From: a phage
DNA: 44,882 nt
Direction: 5' to 3' (one strand)
Sequence record: PZ445419.1
Of this stretch, positions 5,218 through 42,740 are shown in pieces. A program made the position numbers and the translations under genes. The notes beneath the pieces were generated by a model that saw only the letters and a program-made list of their open reading frames with translations, was not told the DNA's origin and ran no database searches. The first letter of the stretch is position 1, and each line of letters opens with the position of its first letter.

Positions 5218-5246
5218 TTTTGTGTCCTCGTTGTTGGTGTGCAACC

Positions 5247-5276
5247 AATATAGCGCAACCAATTCCCGCAGTGCAA
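5247..5276 (-). promoter_or_regulatory. candidate sigma70-type promoter of the moron with two ATTGGTTGC motif copies
   Basis: Minus strand reads TTGCAC-18 nt-TATATT; ATTGGTTGC copies in the spacer and overlapping/just after the -10 (plus-strand GCAACCAAT at 5241-5249 and 5255-5263). Confidence 0.4.
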
Positions 5277-10158: not shown

Positions 10159-10521
10159 ATGGCTAAAGCACCACTCTTTACACTTGACCCTAAGCCGACC
10201 TTTAAGCTGCCGATTGAGATCCCGCGCCCTGGTGAGAACGAACCAGGCAAGATGACGTTTACCGTCCGCCACCGCCCTATCGACGAATTTTCGCAGACCA
10301 TGCAGGACACCGAACGCAAGTTGTCGGAGTATGACGACAATGACCCGGACGGCTTTAACGTTATGGTCGAGGCCATCATGCACGTCGCAGAAGGCTGGAA
10401 TCTGCCGGACGAATTTAACGCGGAGAACGTCCGCCGCCTGGTGGTCAACTATCCACGCGCGTTCGGTGTGTTCCACACTTCGTACTATCTCGAACTGATG
10501 GGATTGCGTGAAAAAAACTAA
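10159..10521 (+). CDS. tail assembly chaperone (G-like)
   Basis: 120-aa ORF between major tail and tape-measure genes; ATG 10159 with GGAG RBS preferred over the track start 10117, which lies inside the upstream terminator hairpin. Confidence 0.65.
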   Translation: MAKAPLFTLDPKPTFKLPIEIPRPGENEPGKMTFTVRHRPIDEFSQTMQDTERKLSEYDDNDPDGFNVMVEAIMHVAEGWNLPDEFNAENVRRLVVNYPRAFGVFHTSYYLELMGLREKN

Positions 10522-10835
10522 TTGAGGCGGCGCGACGCTTTTATGGTCCGCCGCCACCCTCCGAAGATTTAGCCGCAAGTTTATGGGGTGCGACCCCCGA
10601 AGATGTTTGTCCGCCTGTTGCGCTGTGGCCTGACAACGCGAAGATAGTCGCAGTCTTCACAGATTGCGCCACGCAATGGCGCACCGGATTTGGTGGCGCA
10701 TACGGCATCGACTACGGCGTGCTGGAGTGGTTATTTAAGATGCACGGTATCGAAAACGAGCAGCGCGCGTTTAAAGATATCAAGCTAATGGAACGAATCG
10801 CGCTTGATGAGATGGCGCAGCAGAACCCCGCATAA
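10159..10835 (+). CDS. tail assembly chaperone GT-like fusion made by -1 programmed ribosomal frameshift
   Basis: Slippery heptamer A_AAA_AAC at 10512-10518, two codons before the G stop; the -1 frame is open for 106 further codons to TAA 10833-10835 and has no ATG of its own. Confidence 0.55.
10512..10518 (+). other. -1 programmed frameshift slippery site (A AAA AAC)
   Basis: X_XXY_YYZ heptamer inside the run GAAAAAAAC at the 3' end of the G-like gene. Confidence 0.55.
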
Positions 10836-10839
10836 TGAA

Positions 10840-11156
10840 GCGGGACAGGCGGGACGTCCCGTTTTGTCCCACCCCTGTGAAACTGCATACCTACTCACTT
10901 CCATTGCATAATATAAAAGCGGGACAAGCGGGACGTCCCGTTTTGTCCCACCCCACAAAAGTGCATACGTATTCGGTTTTCGTGCATAAAACAAACGGGA
11001 CAAAAAGCGGGACAAACACTAGGCGGGACAAAGCGGGACAGCACCCCGTCCCAGCCAGTGCTGCCGCGGTTTTCAGCCGATCGGGACAGCGGGACAGCAC
11101 CCCAGTCTTTCAGACTAGACGGGGGTCAATGGCCCCCCTCGTCTGAGACTGAATAA
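10840..11156. repeat. iteron-like array of GCGGGACA repeats with GGGACGTCCC dyads, ending in a conserved 57-bp palindrome (module copy 1)
   Basis: About 13 GCGGGACA/GGGACG/TGTCCC copies at 9-12 bp spacing; an imperfect 80-bp tandem duplication (10846-10995); the last ~140 bp is homologous to 38930-39069. Confidence 0.8.
11100..11156. repeat. 57-bp palindromic element, copy 1 (identical to 39013-39069)
   Basis: CCCCAGTCTTTCAGACTAGACGGGGGTCAATGGCCCCCCTCGTCTGAGACTGAATAA; nested dyads CAGTCT/AGACTG, AGACG/CGTCT, GGGGG/CCCCC around a TCAATGG loop. Confidence 0.8.
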
Positions 11157-11219
11157 GGTTTGTTTTGAAATCGCTGATACAATATACATCGGCAACTGCA
11201 TAAAAAAGGGGACTGCATA

Positions 11220-24359: not shown

Positions 24360-24401
24360 GATGTTTTTCCTTTAGCGGGGCCGTATTGCCCCGACGAGTT
24401 A

Positions 24402-24431
24402 AATATAATGCAACCAACCTATTGGTTGCAA
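24402..24431 (-). promoter_or_regulatory. candidate sigma70-type promoter overlapping a palindromic ATTGGTTGC operator
   Basis: Minus strand TTGCAA-18 nt-TATATT; spacer is the perfect inverted repeat TGCAACCAA-tagg-TTGGTTGCA (24409-24430); GC hairpin in the leader at 24376-24395. Confidence 0.45.
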
Positions 24432-24889
24432 GTGAATTTTGCAACGTTAATTGCGTAAATTTTCGGGACCAGATCGCTGCACGCCCGACGAATTGCCGCG
24501 ATGTTCTTCGGGCAGTCCTCAATGATGACCAGTTCAGACACGTCCGCGTAGCAGACCATTTTGAACACGGCGCACGCCTTAAACTCAGGCGGTGGGGTGT
24601 CGTCCAACATGTGGCGCATAAACAACCGGCCTGTCGGGAATACTTCCAGTTGCTCGGCGGTAGTCTCCCAACATTCGCGCTGCCGGTTAGTCAGATACGC
24701 TATCTCGAAGCCTTGCTCTTTGTACATGCGCAGCAGCGGCAGCATATCCATGTTCAGGTCTTCGCGGACGTGCGCTTTGTGCCACTTTGCCCAAAAGGTT
24801 GATTTCGTTTTTATGCCCGGCACCAGGTCGGCGCGTGCATCACTCGAACCATTAATAACGCCATCCAAATCGCAAATCAGTAATTTCAT
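24419..24889 (-). CDS. HAD-superfamily phosphatase-like protein
   Basis: 156-aa ORF beginning MKLLICDLDGVING (HAD motif I DxDGx). Confidence 0.55.
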   Translation of the reverse strand: MKLLICDLDGVINGSSDARADLVPGIKTKSTFWAKWHKAHVREDLNMDMLPLLRMYKEQGFEIAYLTNRQRECWETTAEQLEVFPTGRLFMRHMLDDTPPPEFKACAVFKMVCYADVSELVIIEDCPKNIAAIRRACSDLVPKIYAINVAKFTCNQ

Positions 24890-26283: not shown

Positions 26284-26309
26284 AAAAAGGGCGTCCAAAC
26301 CGGACACCC
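26284..26309 (-). terminator. terminator-like hairpin in intergenic leader
   Basis: Minus strand GGGTGTCC-ggttt-GGACGCCC followed by TTTTT, between two tandem ATTGGTTGCAT motifs and the RBS of the downstream gene. Confidence 0.45.
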
Positions 26310-26345
26310 TCAATATAATGCAACCAATATGATTATGCAACCAAT

Positions 26346-29277: not shown

Positions 29278-29556
29278 CTATGCGACCAATTCAGCAACCA
29301 ATAAATCGCAGTCGGCTATGTTGTCGATAACGCGAACGTCCGCACCGCGGCGGGCCATTCGATCATGTTCACGTACTTGGTGCGGCTTCGGTTTTCCTCC
29401 GGGGCGCTTCACTTCGACGAACACTATTTTGCCGTTGATGATAATAATCAGGTCGGGAGCACCTGCGCGCCCCTCCCATGCCAGTTTTCTGCAGAATCCG
29501 CCGACCTCTTTAACCCGTTTCATAAGGTGACGCTGCACCTTGCCTTCTGGTGTCAT
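29278..29556 (-). CDS. VRR-NUC domain nuclease
   Basis: 92-aa ORF with PD-(D/E)XK-type core APDLIIIINGKIVFVEVKRPGGKP. Confidence 0.65.
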   Translation of the reverse strand: MTPEGKVQRHLMKRVKEVGGFCRKLAWEGRAGAPDLIIIINGKIVFVEVKRPGGKPKPHQVREHDRMARRGADVRVIDNIADCDLLVAELVA

Positions 29557-32962: not shown

Positions 32963-33027
32963 TTTCCAATTCCTCATTTTCACATGCATCGGGGTTATTG
33001 GAAGCCACCCCGTTCGGCTTGGTTGCC

Positions 33028-33056
33028 AATTTACTTGGTTGCGCCTGAGCGGTCAA
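33028..33056 (-). promoter_or_regulatory. candidate sigma70-type promoter for the ssDNA-binding protein gene with ATTGGTTGC-family motifs
   Basis: Minus strand TTGACC-17 nt-TAAATT; motif copies at 33035-33043 (in spacer) and 33019-33027 (just after the -10). Confidence 0.45.
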
Positions 33057-36111: not shown

Positions 36112-36142
36112 CGTTGGTCATTAACCAACAGGAGACTGAATT

Positions 36143-36482: not shown

Positions 36483-38747
36483 ATGAGCTTAATTAAATTC
36501 GCTGTAACACGACCCGCTAAAAAAGGCGAAAAAGCCAGGGCGGAAAACTTCCAGATGACTACCGAAGAGTTTTTCGAATTTATCAATGATGCGAAAGAAA
36601 TCTCCTCGGTGCATATCAACAAGACGGAAGATAAAGCGGAGTATGCGCGCCGCAAGCGTAAGGCCGATGGCATCGTGGCATATACCAGTGACGGCTTACG
36701 CCGTAAGACCAGCGCGGTGGACCGCTCGATCCTGTTCTTTGATATTGACCGCACCGACACTCGCACCCTGCGCCGCTGCCGTAAGGCGTTCATCGACGCG
36801 GGTCTGGAACACGTATTTCACACCACAACCGGCGACCGCCACCCGCTGAAAGGGGGCACGCGTTGCGCCCGTTTCCTGGTGCTCACGGACAAGCCGGTAC
36901 CGGCTGAAGACCTGGGCCGCGTCCAGTATGCACTATTACACCAACTGGGTCTGTCAGATGTGGACTTCGACGACTGTACAAAAGACACTAACCGCCTTAT
37001 GTACCTGCCACATCAGCAGTCTGTCGTTAAGTGCCACTACGGCAAGCGCGCCCGCGTCCGTCGTCTGCTCCGCCTGGCTGATAAGCTGGGAGTGGAAAAA
37101 GAGGAAGTACGACGCGAACTGACCCAGGGCGATGACGGCGTGGCTGACGGTATTCTGGATTGGTGCTTCCAGGCGGGATTCGAACCGCTGTCGTCTGGTC
37201 GTGGTTATGAAGTACCGTGTCCGAACGAACATCTGCACTCTGGTGAAGGGTCCACCGCTATCATGGTTAAGGATGGCGAGATCCGTTTCAAGTGTATGCA
37301 CACCGGCAACGAGTGCTGTTCCGAACTGAACAGACACCAGCACCTGGCGCTACGTCTTATCGGGATCCCGGACCACCTTAACGTCGAACCGCACAACATG
37401 TCACGTAAGCAAATCGCCGCCATCCTTCCGGGACTGGACGATGAGGAAGTGGAATCGTGCTATGAACATATCGTTGATGCGGTCGGTGACGGCGACGAGT
37501 ACGGCGGATGTACGGACGCAGACCTGGACAACGAGCCGGTTGCGCTGTTCAGTAAGCACGACCCGATCATCGAGGGGCTGATTAACTTCAAATCGACCTG
37601 GTATCTCGCCGGTGAGTCGAACATTGGCAAGTCGTTCTACGTGCTGGGCCAGATGGCGTCAGTATCTGCCGGTATTCCGTTCGGCGGCGCGAAGGTCGTC
37701 CAGTGCCACAACTTCTATTTCGACGCGGAAGGTGGTGAAGCCTCCAACCAGCGTAAAGAAGCATTGCAGATCAAATATGAGCACGACCTGGACAAGCTGC
37801 ACATTATCGATCTGCAGTCACGCGGCTGGGATATCACCAGCAAGTCAGGATTGCGTGAAGTTATCAGCTTCATCAACCGCACCGCTAACGGCGAACCGGT
37901 TGGCCTGGTGGCGTTCGACTCTCTCAACCAGACTGTTGCGCTGCGGTCCGCCGATGCTAAACCGTTCGACGAGAACAACGCCAGCGATATGGGCGAAGTG
38001 GTAAAAGCGCTGAAAGCCATCGCGGAAAATACCGGCGGCAGTGCTGGCGTCATCCACCACCCGGCGAAGGGTGCAAACGGCAGCAGATCCCCCCGCGGGT
38101 CCGGCGCGCTGCATGGTGCTGTTGATTCTGCGTTCTTCCTGGAGCAACCGGACGACAACCAGCCAGGCCAATTGAACCTGTATCACGAAAAGGCACGTAA
38201 CGGCATCAAGCAAGCGCCGCGTGGCTTCGTCCTGCTCAAGTGCAAGGTGAAGGTAGATCTCCGCAAGTCAGAAGCGTTCGCGTCGCACCAGTCCACCAGC
38301 ACCGGTCCGGACTTCGGAGACGTAGTTGCCGGTTGGGACGTCAAACCAATTGCGTCCACCCCGCGCGACGAGACTTTATACCTCGTACCGGTCGCCCTGG
38401 CACCGTTCGCTATAGAACAGGCGAAGGCCGCAGGAAAAGCCGCAGTTAAGGAAGAGAACACCGCCGGACCGCGCACCGAAAAAGAAAAGGTACTTTACGC
38501 GGCCCTGGAAAAACTGATGGAAGATAACCCGGACCATACCGGATTCAGTAAATCGGCAATTGTCCGCCAGGCTGGGCTTGCGAAAGGTGGAACATCGACG
38601 AAGGCAATCGACGATATGATCGAGCGCGGAGTGTTAGGTTTTTATACCGATCCGCACACTGGGGCCATCTATGGGTCGTCGAATATCGTCATCAAAACAA
38701 ATATACCCATCACGCTTTCGGCGACCGATGACGACCTGAAAGATTAA
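36483..38747 (+). CDS. primase/replicative helicase-like protein (AAA_25/RepA-like ATPase with N-terminal primase-like region)
   Basis: 754-aa ORF; Walker A-like AGESNIGKSF followed by a RecA-fold-like region; N-terminal half contains FFDIDRTD. Confidence 0.55.
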   Translation: MSLIKFAVTRPAKKGEKARAENFQMTTEEFFEFINDAKEISSVHINKTEDKAEYARRKRKADGIVAYTSDGLRRKTSAVDRSILFFDIDRTDTRTLRRCRKAFIDAGLEHVFHTTTGDRHPLKGGTRCARFLVLTDKPVPAEDLGRVQYALLHQLGLSDVDFDDCTKDTNRLMYLPHQQSVVKCHYGKRARVRRLLRLADKLGVEKEEVRRELTQGDDGVADGILDWCFQAGFEPLSSGRGYEVPCPNEHLHSGEGSTAIMVKDGEIRFKCMHTGNECCSELNRHQHLALRLIGIPDHLNVEPHNMSRKQIAAILPGLDDEEVESCYEHIVDAVGDGDEYGGCTDADLDNEPVALFSKHDPIIEGLINFKSTWYLAGESNIGKSFYVLGQMASVSAGIPFGGAKVVQCHNFYFDAEGGEASNQRKEALQIKYEHDLDKLHIIDLQSRGWDITSKSGLREVISFINRTANGEPVGLVAFDSLNQTVALRSADAKPFDENNASDMGEVVKALKAIAENTGGSAGVIHHPAKGANGSRSPRGSGALHGAVDSAFFLEQPDDNQPGQLNLYHEKARNGIKQAPRGFVLLKCKVKVDLRKSEAFASHQSTSTGPDFGDVVAGWDVKPIASTPRDETLYLVPVALAPFAIEQAKAAGKAAVKEENTAGPRTEKEKVLYAALEKLMEDNPDHTGFSKSAIVRQAGLAKGGTSTKAIDDMIERGVLGFYTDPHTGAIYGSSNIVIKTNIPITLSATDDDLKD

Positions 38748-38758
38748 ATTTTGCGTGT

Positions 38759-38867
38759 ATTGGTTGCCTATATGGGAATCCCCATATCGCTAAACGATTA
38801 ATTTGTGCGCGAATTGGTTGCCATTTTGAGTGTTTTTATCTGGTCGCATTGGTTGCCGTGTAGCGTG
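38759..38867 (+). repeat. three direct ATTGGTTGCC motif copies in an AT-rich spacer
   Basis: Exact copies at 38759-38768, 38813-38822 and 38858-38867; the first is followed by the palindrome TATATGGG-aat-CCCCATAT. Confidence 0.7.
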
Positions 38868-38907
38868 ATTATTATGAATAGTTATGCAATAAAACTGCAT
38901 AAAGTAA

Positions 38908-39069
38908 GCGGGACAGAAAGCGGGACAGACATGGGGCGGGACAAAGCGGGACAGCACCCCCGTCCCGCCCCGGATGGCGCGGCCTGGCGTGGGGCGGGAC
39001 AAGCGGGACAAACCCCAGTCTTTCAGACTAGACGGGGGTCAATGGCCCCCCTCGTCTGAGACTGAATAA
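38908..39069. repeat. iteron-like GCGGGACA array ending in the conserved 57-bp palindrome (module copy 2)
   Basis: Six direct GCGGGACA/CGGGACA copies plus an inverted GTCCCG copy; 38930-39069 is homologous to the 3' part of 10840-11156. Confidence 0.8.
39013..39069. repeat. 57-bp palindromic element, copy 2 (identical to 11100-11156)
   Basis: Same 57-nt sequence as copy 1, base for base. Confidence 0.8.
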
Positions 39070-39224
39070 AATCCGGGGATTGCAAAATACACGGCAGCAT
39101 GAGGCGAAGTGCGGTCGCGGATGAACTTGGCAACCAATGCGGGTTGTATTATGCTGAGTGAAAAATGCGGTTTGCAGTCACAGCAGATAGCGATCAACTT
39201 TTTCATGCGCATGATTAATATTGG

Positions 39225-39253
39225 TTGCATTCGTTCCAGCACCCTGCTAGATT
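39225..39253 (+). promoter_or_regulatory. candidate promoter for the rightward small-gene operon with ATTGGTTGCA motifs
   Basis: TTGCAT-17 nt-TAGATT; motif copies at 39220-39229 and 39251-39260; leader ATTGGTTGCACACCAACAAGAGGAC closely matches the moron leader at 5217-5250. Confidence 0.45.
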
Positions 39254-39283
39254 GGTTGCACACCAACAAGAGGACTGCACAAA

Positions 39284-39763
39284 ATGAAATTTCCAGTAAT
39301 CATCAAAGACGGTAAATCAACTATCACCTTCACCGGCAACGACCACGGCACTTACGAGAGCGGCGCGGCTTGCATGTCCACCCTGGAAGATATGATGATT
39401 CGTGTTAATTCCGGTAAAGCCTCGATTGTTGACGACAACACTAAGAAGGACCGAACAATGAGAGCACTAATCTGGAATTACTCACTGGCCCTGGCAAAGC
39501 TGAACGAAGCGAAGGCGCTGAACGGCAACGTAGACCGTGCGCGCCAGTTTGCGACACTGGCACACCAGTCAATCATGTGTGCGCTAGACGATATGGACGC
39601 CAGCATGGATGGCCTGGGTCCGCTGCGTAAGGCAATCCATGAATACGCGCTGGCATTCTCCCGTGAGCGCCTGGCTTATCGCTTCGGTATTGGCGAGAAG
39701 GCAGTGACAAACGTCGCCAGGATTAAAGCCCAGCGTGAGCTATTCGCCCAGCTTGCGAAATAA
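39284..39763 (+). CDS. hypothetical protein
   Basis: 159-aa ORF, first gene after the long regulatory region. Confidence 0.55.
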   Translation: MKFPVIIKDGKSTITFTGNDHGTYESGAACMSTLEDMMIRVNSGKASIVDDNTKKDRTMRALIWNYSLALAKLNEAKALNGNVDRARQFATLAHQSIMCALDDMDASMDGLGPLRKAIHEYALAFSRERLAYRFGIGEKAVTNVARIKAQRELFAQLAK

Positions 39764-42680: not shown

Positions 42681-42710
42681 TTGACTTGCAACCAACATAG
42701 ACGCCATACT
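42681..42710 (+). promoter_or_regulatory. candidate sigma70-type promoter with ATTGGTTGC-family motifs
   Basis: TTGACT-18 nt-CATACT directly after the terminator; TGCAACCAA in the spacer (42687-42695) and GCGACCAAT just after the -10 (42711-42719). Confidence 0.45.
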
Positions 42711-42740
42711 GCGACCAATCAACAAGAGGAGTATTACACT

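Follow-up and report, generated by a model that had tools for sequence, protein, structure and literature searches.

Where does replication of Escherichia phage Oekolampad (Bas18, Dhillonvirus; MZ501095.1) begin, and what is the role of the noncoding gap that follows its helicase-primase gene? The 44,882-nucleotide (nt) stretch analyzed here, hereafter the window, is the complete genome of this phage in rotated form (window coordinate = MZ501095.1 record coordinate − 551). We refer to the gap between the helicase-primase gene and the rightward small-gene operon (ATG at 39284) as region B (38748 to 39283), and to a second noncoding gap of 383 bp on the plus strand, between the tail-chaperone G/GT genes and the tape-measure gene, as region A (10837 to 11219). 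An original prediction had proposed region B as a candidate origin or master regulatory locus, and every motif that it listed is present where it was placed, far above chance. Based on the comparisons described below, region B is most likely a composite control region whose core (38866 to 39064) is the replication origin of the phage. With modest confidence, we favor an iteron origin that would be served by a single AEP-primase/helicase/winged-helix polypeptide, as in P4 alpha ori/crr or IncQ oriV. The origin proposal survives on the GCGGGACA repeats, the AT-rich core, and the covariation of the repeats with the winged helix, but not on the ATTGGTTGCC copies that it had also counted as iterons.

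Region B carries an iteron array between an AT-rich core and a hairpin

Close relatives of region B were found in ∼160 phage records, with two matching places per genome in most. Conservation within the genus was read from an alignment of 17 Dhillonvirus sequences (16 relatives and the window), and more distant comparisons included ten metagenomic loci (L0xx) fetched via helicase-primase homologues (P00xx) of 46 to 81% identity. Coordinates of all features are given in Table 1.

The repeat GCGGGACA occurs 15 times in the window against 2.2 expected (7-fold over-represented) and is confined to two loci. In region B, its copies form a 103-bp array consisting of four direct copies, one inverted copy, a variable GC-rich spacer, and two further direct copies, bearing out the earlier description of a second repeat array in this place; six more copies lie at 10840 to 11096 in region A. 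The array is directly adjoined by an AT-rich core, a candidate DNA-unwinding element, and the same adjacency was seen in every lineage examined. Among all 40-mers of the genome, the one at 38868 ranks second in AT content. The AT-rich segment had previously been placed at 38759 to 38867; that interval is only 56% AT (genome, 45.5%), and the true core lies immediately downstream.

Two conserved boxes, 21 bp apart, lie within the AT-rich core. No variation in their ATAGTTATGCA and TGCATAAA was seen across the genus, and the pair also occurs, with spacing unchanged, in PhiSTP1, in region A of eiAU, and in L025 to L031 and L064. Retention of these boxes from Dhillonvirus to Cornellvirus possibly reflects a conserved reader, which may be a host protein. 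Pairs of TG(A/C)AT-type boxes with this spacing stand ahead of each iteron group (38875 to 38909, 10884 to 10918, and 10962 to 10996). Of all 14-mers in the genome, the first box (TGAATAGTTATGCA) most resembles an ARG box (10.5/12); across the genome, neither single nor paired ARG-box scores exceeded those of shuffles, and the match remains a lead only. A conserved IHF-like TGATTTATAAGGA was observed between iteron groups in L028 (4880 to 4900), L029 (2880 to 2900), L030 (4860 to 4875), L064, L066, and regions A and B of eiAU; Oekolampad-type phages have a GC-rich spacer where the other lineages have this element.

Downstream of the array lies a GC-rich hairpin (−14.9 kcal/mol as DNA, z = −3.8 versus shuffles; −28 kcal/mol as RNA). 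It had been reported as a 57-bp palindrome at 39013 to 39069; the hairpin is real, but it is imperfect and spans 49 nt. The spacers and the hairpin loop vary within the genus, but no change is seen in the iterons, boxes, or hairpin stems. From the hairpin to the rightward promoter, ∼150 bp of mixed conservation follow, including one inverted box.

Table 1. Positions of the features of regions A and B and of the genes and boxes around them (window coordinates)
Feature	Coordinates	Strand	Remarks
AT-rich core, candidate DNA-unwinding element	38866-38907		42 bp, 79% AT
Two conserved boxes in AT-rich core	TGAATAGTTATGCA 38875-38888; TGCATAAAGTAAGC 38896-38909		21 bp apart
Iteron array of region B	38908-39010	+	GCGGGACA direct at 38908, 38920, 38936, 38946, 38994, 39003; inverted at 38962-38967
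Imperfect GC-rich 49-nt hairpin	39016-39064	+	No U/T tract; internal loops
Predicted winged-helix coding region	38460-38717	+	Residues ∼660-745; proposed iteron reader
Palindromic iteron units of region A (two, 38 nt each)	10838-10875, 10917-10954		
Box pairs of region A	10884/10905 and 10962/10983		
Iteron array of region A	10996-11096		
Hairpin of region A	11103-11151		
Three direct ATTGGTTGCC boxes	38759-38768, 38813-38822, 38848-38857	+	
Inverted ATTGGTTGC(C) box	39130-39138	−	No credible promoter attached
Rightward promoter region	39220-39283	+	Two boxes, −35, extended −10, leader
Rightward promoter elements	39225-39230 and 39245-39253	+	−35 TTGCAT (from box 1), 17-nt spacer, extended −10 TGCTAGATT
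(A/G)TTGGTTGC box sites outside region B	5241-5263, 21348, 24410-24429, 26320-26345, 29282-29302, 33018-33042, 35944, 39961, 42688-42719		
Small helix-turn-helix gene, 109 amino acids	36143-36472	+	Sigma-70 region 4/HTH_23 type (Pfam)
Helicase-primase gene, 754 amino acids	36483-38747	+	PHROG "replicative helicase-primase"
54-nt tandem duplication (gene end and one ATTGGTTGCC box)	38736-38822	+	Encloses small hairpin 38770-38788

The repeats are replaced as a set between lineages

The layout of region B recurs directly 3′ of the helicase-primase gene in the Edwardsiella phage eiAU (Eiauvirus), the Salmonella phage PhiSTP1 (Cornellvirus), the Klebsiella phage VLCpiS11a (Guernseyvirinae), and the ten metagenomic loci. 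A pac/terminase site was rejected as an identity for the module because, in every genome, its linkage is to the helicase-primase gene rather than the terminase genes. The repeat itself differs among lineages: GCGGGACA in Oekolampad, SO-1, L025, L026, and L031; TGTGGCAA in L027 and L028; GTGTGCCAA in L029; GGTGCCA in L030 and L064; CGCCCCG in eiAU; GGGGAGA in PhiSTP1; a TTGCGAGT-like repeat in VLCpiS11a and L065; GGGGATC in L066; and TGTGCGGAA in L067. The top 7-mer obtained by blind counting likewise differs per lineage and agrees with these assignments. The arrangement is constant across lineages, running from direct pairs through an inverted copy and a spacer to a final pair and then a hairpin, and the hairpins at that position measure 45 to 65 nt with folding energies of −24 to −34 kcal/mol. 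In L029, eiAU, PhiSTP1, and VLCpiS11a, the hairpin is of other sequence in the matching position. Between lineages, the repeats are exchanged as a whole set, inverted copies included, and such set-wise replacement is, at the level of sequence comparison, the behavior of protein-binding sites. Because all copies, inverted ones too, are replaced at once, neither coding nor a simple RNA element can explain the arrays. A CsrA sponge and an R-loop, both of which would call for a G-rich nontemplate strand, were discarded as well, the repeats of eiAU being C-rich on that strand and those of VLCpiS11a neutral.

We also considered whether the module acts at the RNA level, as a noncoding RNA or an element of mRNA processing or stability in which G-rich repeat RNA and the hairpin form, e.g., an RNase III-type site. 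Both copies of the module are oriented like the genes around them, the hairpin structure is conserved across genera while its sequence has changed, and its internal loops and missing U tract resemble those of processing hairpins. However, the fold of the whole module is barely better than that of shuffles (z = −2.1), no convincing promoter was found upstream of the array, and a search of the window for tRNAs, tmRNA, and the families of Rfam 15 returned nothing at gathering score, the sole Rfam match being at chance level (E = 0.21). Inverted copies, perfect DNA palindromes, set-wise switching, and a box orientation that is flipped in L025 and L031 are, moreover, traits of protein-DNA sites. 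We regard an RNA-level role as very improbable.

Repeat type tracks residues of a predicted winged helix in the helicase-primase

If the repeats are bound by a protein, its DNA-contacting residues may be expected to change with them. The helicase-primase is predicted to comprise an N-terminal AEP primase-polymerase fold, a Cys/His-rich segment, an AAA_25 (RepA/DnaB-like) core (Pfam match at residues 357 to 531), and a C-terminal winged helix. The N-terminal model (pLDDT 82) has the AEP domain of cyanophage S-2L PrimPol as its best PDB match (E = 2.7 × 10−5). The C-terminal domain had no match in sequence libraries; AlphaFold2, run with a 21-sequence alignment, predicted an H-b-H-H-b-b order, the canonical winged-helix topology, with pLDDT of 80 to 91 over ∼80 residues. 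Its top Foldseek matches in the PDB are all MarR-type winged helix-turn-helix regulators, and they are weak (E of at least 0.016). In distant homologues, the helicase core is conserved at 64 to 83%, and the winged helix and N terminus are the most divergent parts. Over residues 1 to 350 (36483 to 37530), the homologues P0004 to P0006 are ∼60% identical, versus 94 to 97% in the rest of the protein; this mosaic AEP domain suggests domain-level recombination.

We compared winged-helix residues with repeat type among homologues of near-equal overall distance (67 to 70%). FSKSAI...GGT(S/N)T in helices 2 and 3 accompanies GCGGGACA (Oekolampad, P0011, and P0012), FSRRAI in helix 2 with GGSST at the start of helix 3 accompanies TGTGGCAA (P0007 and P0009), and GGST(S/T) at the start of helix 3 accompanies GTGCCA-core repeats (P0008, P0010, and P0013). 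P0007 was predicted from its protein to share the repeat of P0009 before its locus was fetched, and the prediction held. P0008 indicates that helix 2 alone is insufficient; the start of helix 3 correlates best with repeat type. These comparisons, spanning approximately four independent switches, are suggestive of a repeat type that tracks winged-helix residues of the helicase-primase.

Two other proteins were evaluated as readers of the iterons and set aside. The helix-turn-helix (HTH) segment of the small HTH protein is nearly invariant across four repeat types, and its gene is absent from eiAU, VLCpiS11a, and PhiSTP1. The gene of a gp46-like acidic protein places the TGTGGCAA lineage (74 to 76%) nearer to Oekolampad than L025 (52%), which bears GCGGGACA. 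Since the small HTH protein is invariant and the gp46-like gene groups the lineages differently, the covariation with the winged helix appears to be more than shared descent.

The core module is duplicated in the late tail operon

Over ∼200 nt, the 3′ part of region A is colinear with the core of region B, box by box and iteron by iteron, and the two hairpins are 100% identical. Two 38-nt palindromic iteron units, upstream of the colinear part, are extra in region A. Matching repeats in regions A and B were found in Oekolampad, SO-1, and eiAU; in SO-1, the hairpin loops differ between the two regions while the stems are kept. For the TGTGGCAA lineage, in which a region A with a matching switch was looked for, a scan of IMG/VR returned unrelated contigs only, and a metagenome scan returned no match. 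The orthologous loci of Sodalis phage SO-1 were flagged in 2009 as the repeat_region features "region A" and "region B" (GenBank GQ502199), with a note, an annotation only, of direct, inverted, and palindromic repeats and of similarity between the regions. In the searchable literature, we found no analysis of regions A and B, whether of their repeat classes, of covariation, or of a protein that binds them, and no mapped Dhillonvirus origin, and searches for the motifs returned primer coincidences only. The assemblies of L027, L030, and L064 stop within the iteron array, and one contig of 27,589 nt is about as long as the distance from A to B in Oekolampad (∼27.9 kb); apparently, the A/B repeat breaks assemblies.

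In other systems, crr relates to P4 ori, and oriR to SPP1 oriL, as a second cis locus or enhancer. By analogy, region A would act either as another origin or as an enhancer in cis.

The sharing of repeats between two loci, as in P4 ori/crr, also suits a reading in which the winged helix binds these sites without initiation there, the sites acting as a crr-like enhancer, in handcuffing or copy control, or in tethering, and unwinding taking place elsewhere, e.g., in the gap with divergent promoters at 35.9 to 36.1 kb. Both the cumulative GC-skew minimum and the point at which gene orientation diverges map to about 36 kb, away from 38.9 kb, and a further AT-rich window is present at 36139. The 36-kb gap, however, contains no repeats besides one TTGGTTGC box, and it is the AT-rich core of the module that adjoins iterons in every lineage examined. 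We judge this arrangement improbable. The skew minimum and the divergence are consistent with an origin, and transcription bias alone gives a similar pattern.

A promoter box shared with the rest of the genome flanks the core

A second motif of region B, ATTGGTTGC, is present in 15 exact copies in the window versus 0.47 expected (0 of 100 shuffles reached 15). Six of these fall in region B: at 38759, 38813, and 38848 on the plus strand, each followed by C; at 39130 on the minus strand; and at 39220 and 39251 on the plus strand. In the form TTGGTTGC, the box has 21 sites in the genome, 16 of which lie within the 6.5% that is noncoding (P ∼ 1 × 10−15). At least eight intergenic regions contain such sites, frequently as pairs, and six sites are in region B. 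In 7 of the 21 sites, TTGC(N)(N) of the box forms a −35 hexamer with a −10-like hexamer 16 to 18 nt farther on (background, 3.9%); the remaining copies fall within promoter spacers, overlap the −10 and start site, or stand at positions to which no promoter could be assigned (38759, 38813, 39130, and 42688). The (A/G)TTGGTTGC box was observed in most early and middle intergenic regions, its pairs often 12 to 31 bp apart.

The box behaves differently from the iterons in relatives. It is unchanged in eiAU and VLCpiS11a and altered to TTGGCTGC, TTGGCCGC, or TTGGCAGC in Guernseyvirinae lineages (PhiSTP1, L065, and L066), and its sequence is constant in phages whose locus-specific repeats have switched. 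The position of the ATTGGTTGCC box 5′ of the array is kept in relatives, with its orientation flipped in L025 and L031, and GGCAACCAATGC of the 39130 box is invariant in the genus within variable flanks. The ATTGGTTGCC/ATTGGTTGC motifs had been read as iterons specific to this region; being promoter-associated and spread over so many intergenic regions, they can no longer be counted as such. As an origin iteron, ATTGGTTGC was rejected on the same dispersal over promoters and on its constancy where the iterons switch. Judging from its distribution, the TTGGTTGC box is a promoter/operator element of a genome-wide transcription circuit, separate from the proposed origin core. The small HTH protein is a candidate reader of the box within Dhillonvirus; it was excluded as a universal reader, since eiAU and VLCpiS11a keep the box and lack that protein.

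Two of the boxes belong to the rightward promoter, where box 1 supplies the −35 and box 2 (39251 to 39259) overlaps the −10 and the start site; the leader carries an AGAGGA ribosome-binding site ahead of ATG 39284. The −10 is TG-n-TAGATT in Oekolampad and TATATT in most relatives, and the extended −10 promoter is conserved. With 7/12 matches to consensus, the promoter falls under the threshold of the consensus scanner and was hence missed by it. A 24-nt paralogue of its −10, box, and leader lies at 5231 to 5254 on the opposite strand, and eiAU has identical two-box promoter geometry. It is plausible that this promoter (39225 to 39253) starts the small-gene operon. The earlier claim that region B drives that operon is upheld to this extent, but at the sequence level and below the scanner threshold. 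At 24380 to 24440 and 26290 to 26345, a GC-rich hairpin, with T runs on the transcribed strand, comes straight after a promoter-like two-box site; such hairpins may be attenuators or bidirectional terminators.

Region B might serve transcription alone, as the place where the helicase-primase transcript ends and the rightward operon starts, with the GCGGGACA array as an operator bank and the origin elsewhere. The TTGGTTGC boxes mark promoters throughout the genome and are present six times here, and the extended −10 promoter at 39245 to 39253 is conserved. In addition, the Dhillonvirus HK578 escapes P2 OLD by mutations in the helicase-primase and in the promoter of its operon (bioRxiv 10.64898/2026.07.10.737580), the escapers including a deletion in the promoter of the small HTH/helicase-primase operon (gp45-gp46). 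However, the array lies 240 bp upstream of the rightward promoter and not over it, no intrinsic terminator was detected after the helicase-primase gene (38600 to 39400), and region A, which is set amid the late tail operon and lacks any TTGGTTGC box, has a second copy of array and hairpin. Set-wise switching coupled to the DNA-binding domain of a replication protein is, furthermore, the classic signature of an origin and its initiator. A purely transcriptional role is unlikely in our estimation.

Neighboring genes and annotation

The small HTH gene is the first gene of the operon that holds the helicase-primase gene. Two deposited "hypothetical protein" open reading frames (ORFs) that overlap the modules are probably not genes. 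For bas18_0052 (38874 to 39059, 62 amino acids), the peptide is a read-through of the repeats, in a frame not conserved across lineages; for bas18_0018 (10982 to 11146), it is a read-through of the iteron array and hairpin, and no frame is conserved across lineages. The description of region B as the longest noncoding stretch of the genome applies once bas18_0052 is discounted, as was done here, and not otherwise.

At the 5′ end of region B, the 54-nt tandem duplication is present in 7 of the 17 aligned sequences (6 of the 16 relatives and the window), and the first ATTGGTTGCC copy of the region is part of it. The first ORF of the rightward operon (39284 to 39763) has an in-frame N-terminal extension of 58 codons (39284 to 39457); phage "rolling" is among those whose promoter leader is joined straight to the conserved MRALIWNY... 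start of this ORF, and the record annotates the short form alone. Upstream of region A (10504 to 10836), the tail-chaperone gene ends at a slippery GAAAAAAACTAA, with the downstream frame open to ∼10836. The sequence indicates that this is the usual G/GT −1 frameshift arrangement, of which the record annotates a T-part fragment only. A weak promoter candidate (TTGTTT, 17 nt, TATACA) stands directly before the tape-measure gene.

Comparison with known origins

P4 alpha unites primase, helicase, and a C-terminal winged-helix origin-binding domain in one polypeptide, with repeats at ori and crr. The Oekolampad system resembles it in its single polypeptide with primase, helicase, and (here predicted) winged helix and in its short repeats at two loci, one of them just 3′ of the gene. 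Regions A and B of Oekolampad have repeats, boxes, and hairpin in common, and the two-locus trait extends to SO-1 and eiAU. In contrast to P4 alpha, the primase has an AEP fold, the helicase is AAA_25/RepA-like and not of superfamily 3, and the repeats are unrelated. No homology of the helicase-primase to P4 alpha was detected: Pfam gave AAA_25 only, and a PDB sequence search gave no significant match. Because no sequence or family match exists and the primase and helicase types differ, we class the system, from these sequence comparisons, as an analogue of P4 alpha and not as a member of its family.

The oriV of IncQ RSF1010, used with RepA, RepB′, and RepC, has iterons, GC-rich and AT-rich segments, and priming hairpins, and its primase is AEP-like. 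Region B shares the iterons, the GC-rich and AT-rich segments, and a hairpin, and the proteins share the AAA_25 helicase family and an AEP-like primase. RSF1010 RepA (1g8y) is the best PDB sequence match of the helicase-primase, an insignificant one (E = 0.45). The three activities reside in separate proteins in IncQ but are apparently fused in Oekolampad, and each Oekolampad module has one hairpin, with a putative priming role, as opposed to the divergent ssiA/ssiB pair.

In lambda, the O gene contains the iterons, and host DnaB is recruited by O via P. As in lambdoid ori/O modules, the repeats of the proposed origin switch jointly with the DNA-binding domain of the putative initiator, the other replication machinery being conserved. 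In Oekolampad, however, the repeats are 3′ of the gene, and the proposed initiator would itself be helicase and primase.

Weighing the origin reading

Were the core of region B an origin, the helicase-primase would dock on the iterons through its predicted winged helix, as the covariation and the fold suggest. By analogy with known systems, the AT-rich stretch beside the iterons would then melt, perhaps with the aid of a host architectural protein bound to the pair of 21-bp-spaced boxes, and the same polypeptide would load its AAA_25 helicase ring and prime with its AEP domain. The hairpin, once extruded, could signal priming or loading on the single strand, or else it could be a site of RNA processing. 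Transcriptional activation of the origin may, in addition, come from the adjacent TTGGTTGC boxes and extended −10 promoter.

Several observations weigh against an origin. The spacing of the iterons is irregular (9 to 16 bp) without helical phasing, and the AT-rich core is short at 42 bp. DnaA boxes (TTWTNCACA, at most one mismatch) number 54 in the genome versus 57 expected, none of them perfect. The late tail operon is an odd site for an origin, as region A would have it, and Guernseyvirinae relatives have region B only. The fold matches of the winged helix are weak (E of at least 0.016, TM ∼0.4) and single out no origin-binding domain, and a winged helix on repeats beside its own gene could equally mean autoregulation. 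Finally, the covariation, with its approximately four independent repeat switches, is partly confounded by shared descent, and overall winged-helix identity fails to separate the repeat classes; only a few residues do so.

A broader proposal joins these elements. The boxes, iterons, and hairpin would form a portable "origin cassette" whose specificity is rewritten with approximately five winged-helix residues. One polypeptide would combine the functions of IncQ RepC, RepA, and RepB′; a copy of the cassette would have entered the late tail operon of Dhillonvirus and Eiauvirus, providing another site of firing; the palindromic iterons and hairpin would be structures sensed by ABC-ATPase defenses (OLD and Lamassu); and an ArgR-like host architectural protein, new to phage origins, may be recruited. 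As a whole, we hold this combination to be possible but less likely than not.

Dhillonviruses are common coliphages, represented in the BASEL collection, and are both therapy candidates and test phages for defense systems. A July 2026 preprint, whose mapping of HK578 escapers to the helicase-primase and its operon promoter also speaks for the origin reading, proposes that OLD senses hairpins at iteron-rich origins, although the origin of HK578 was not located there (bioRxiv 10.64898/2026.07.10.737580). The present locus is an obvious candidate for the OLD trigger and makes that idea directly testable. The natural pairs of repeat and winged helix, of which there are at least nine, are a ready system for studying how initiator specificity is rewritten. 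If the origin reading is true, what is new is a fused initiator/helicase/primase iteron origin with switched specificities and a duplicated cassette, which would not be surprising in principle, and an origin served by such a single polypeptide would offer a compact replicon for phage engineering.

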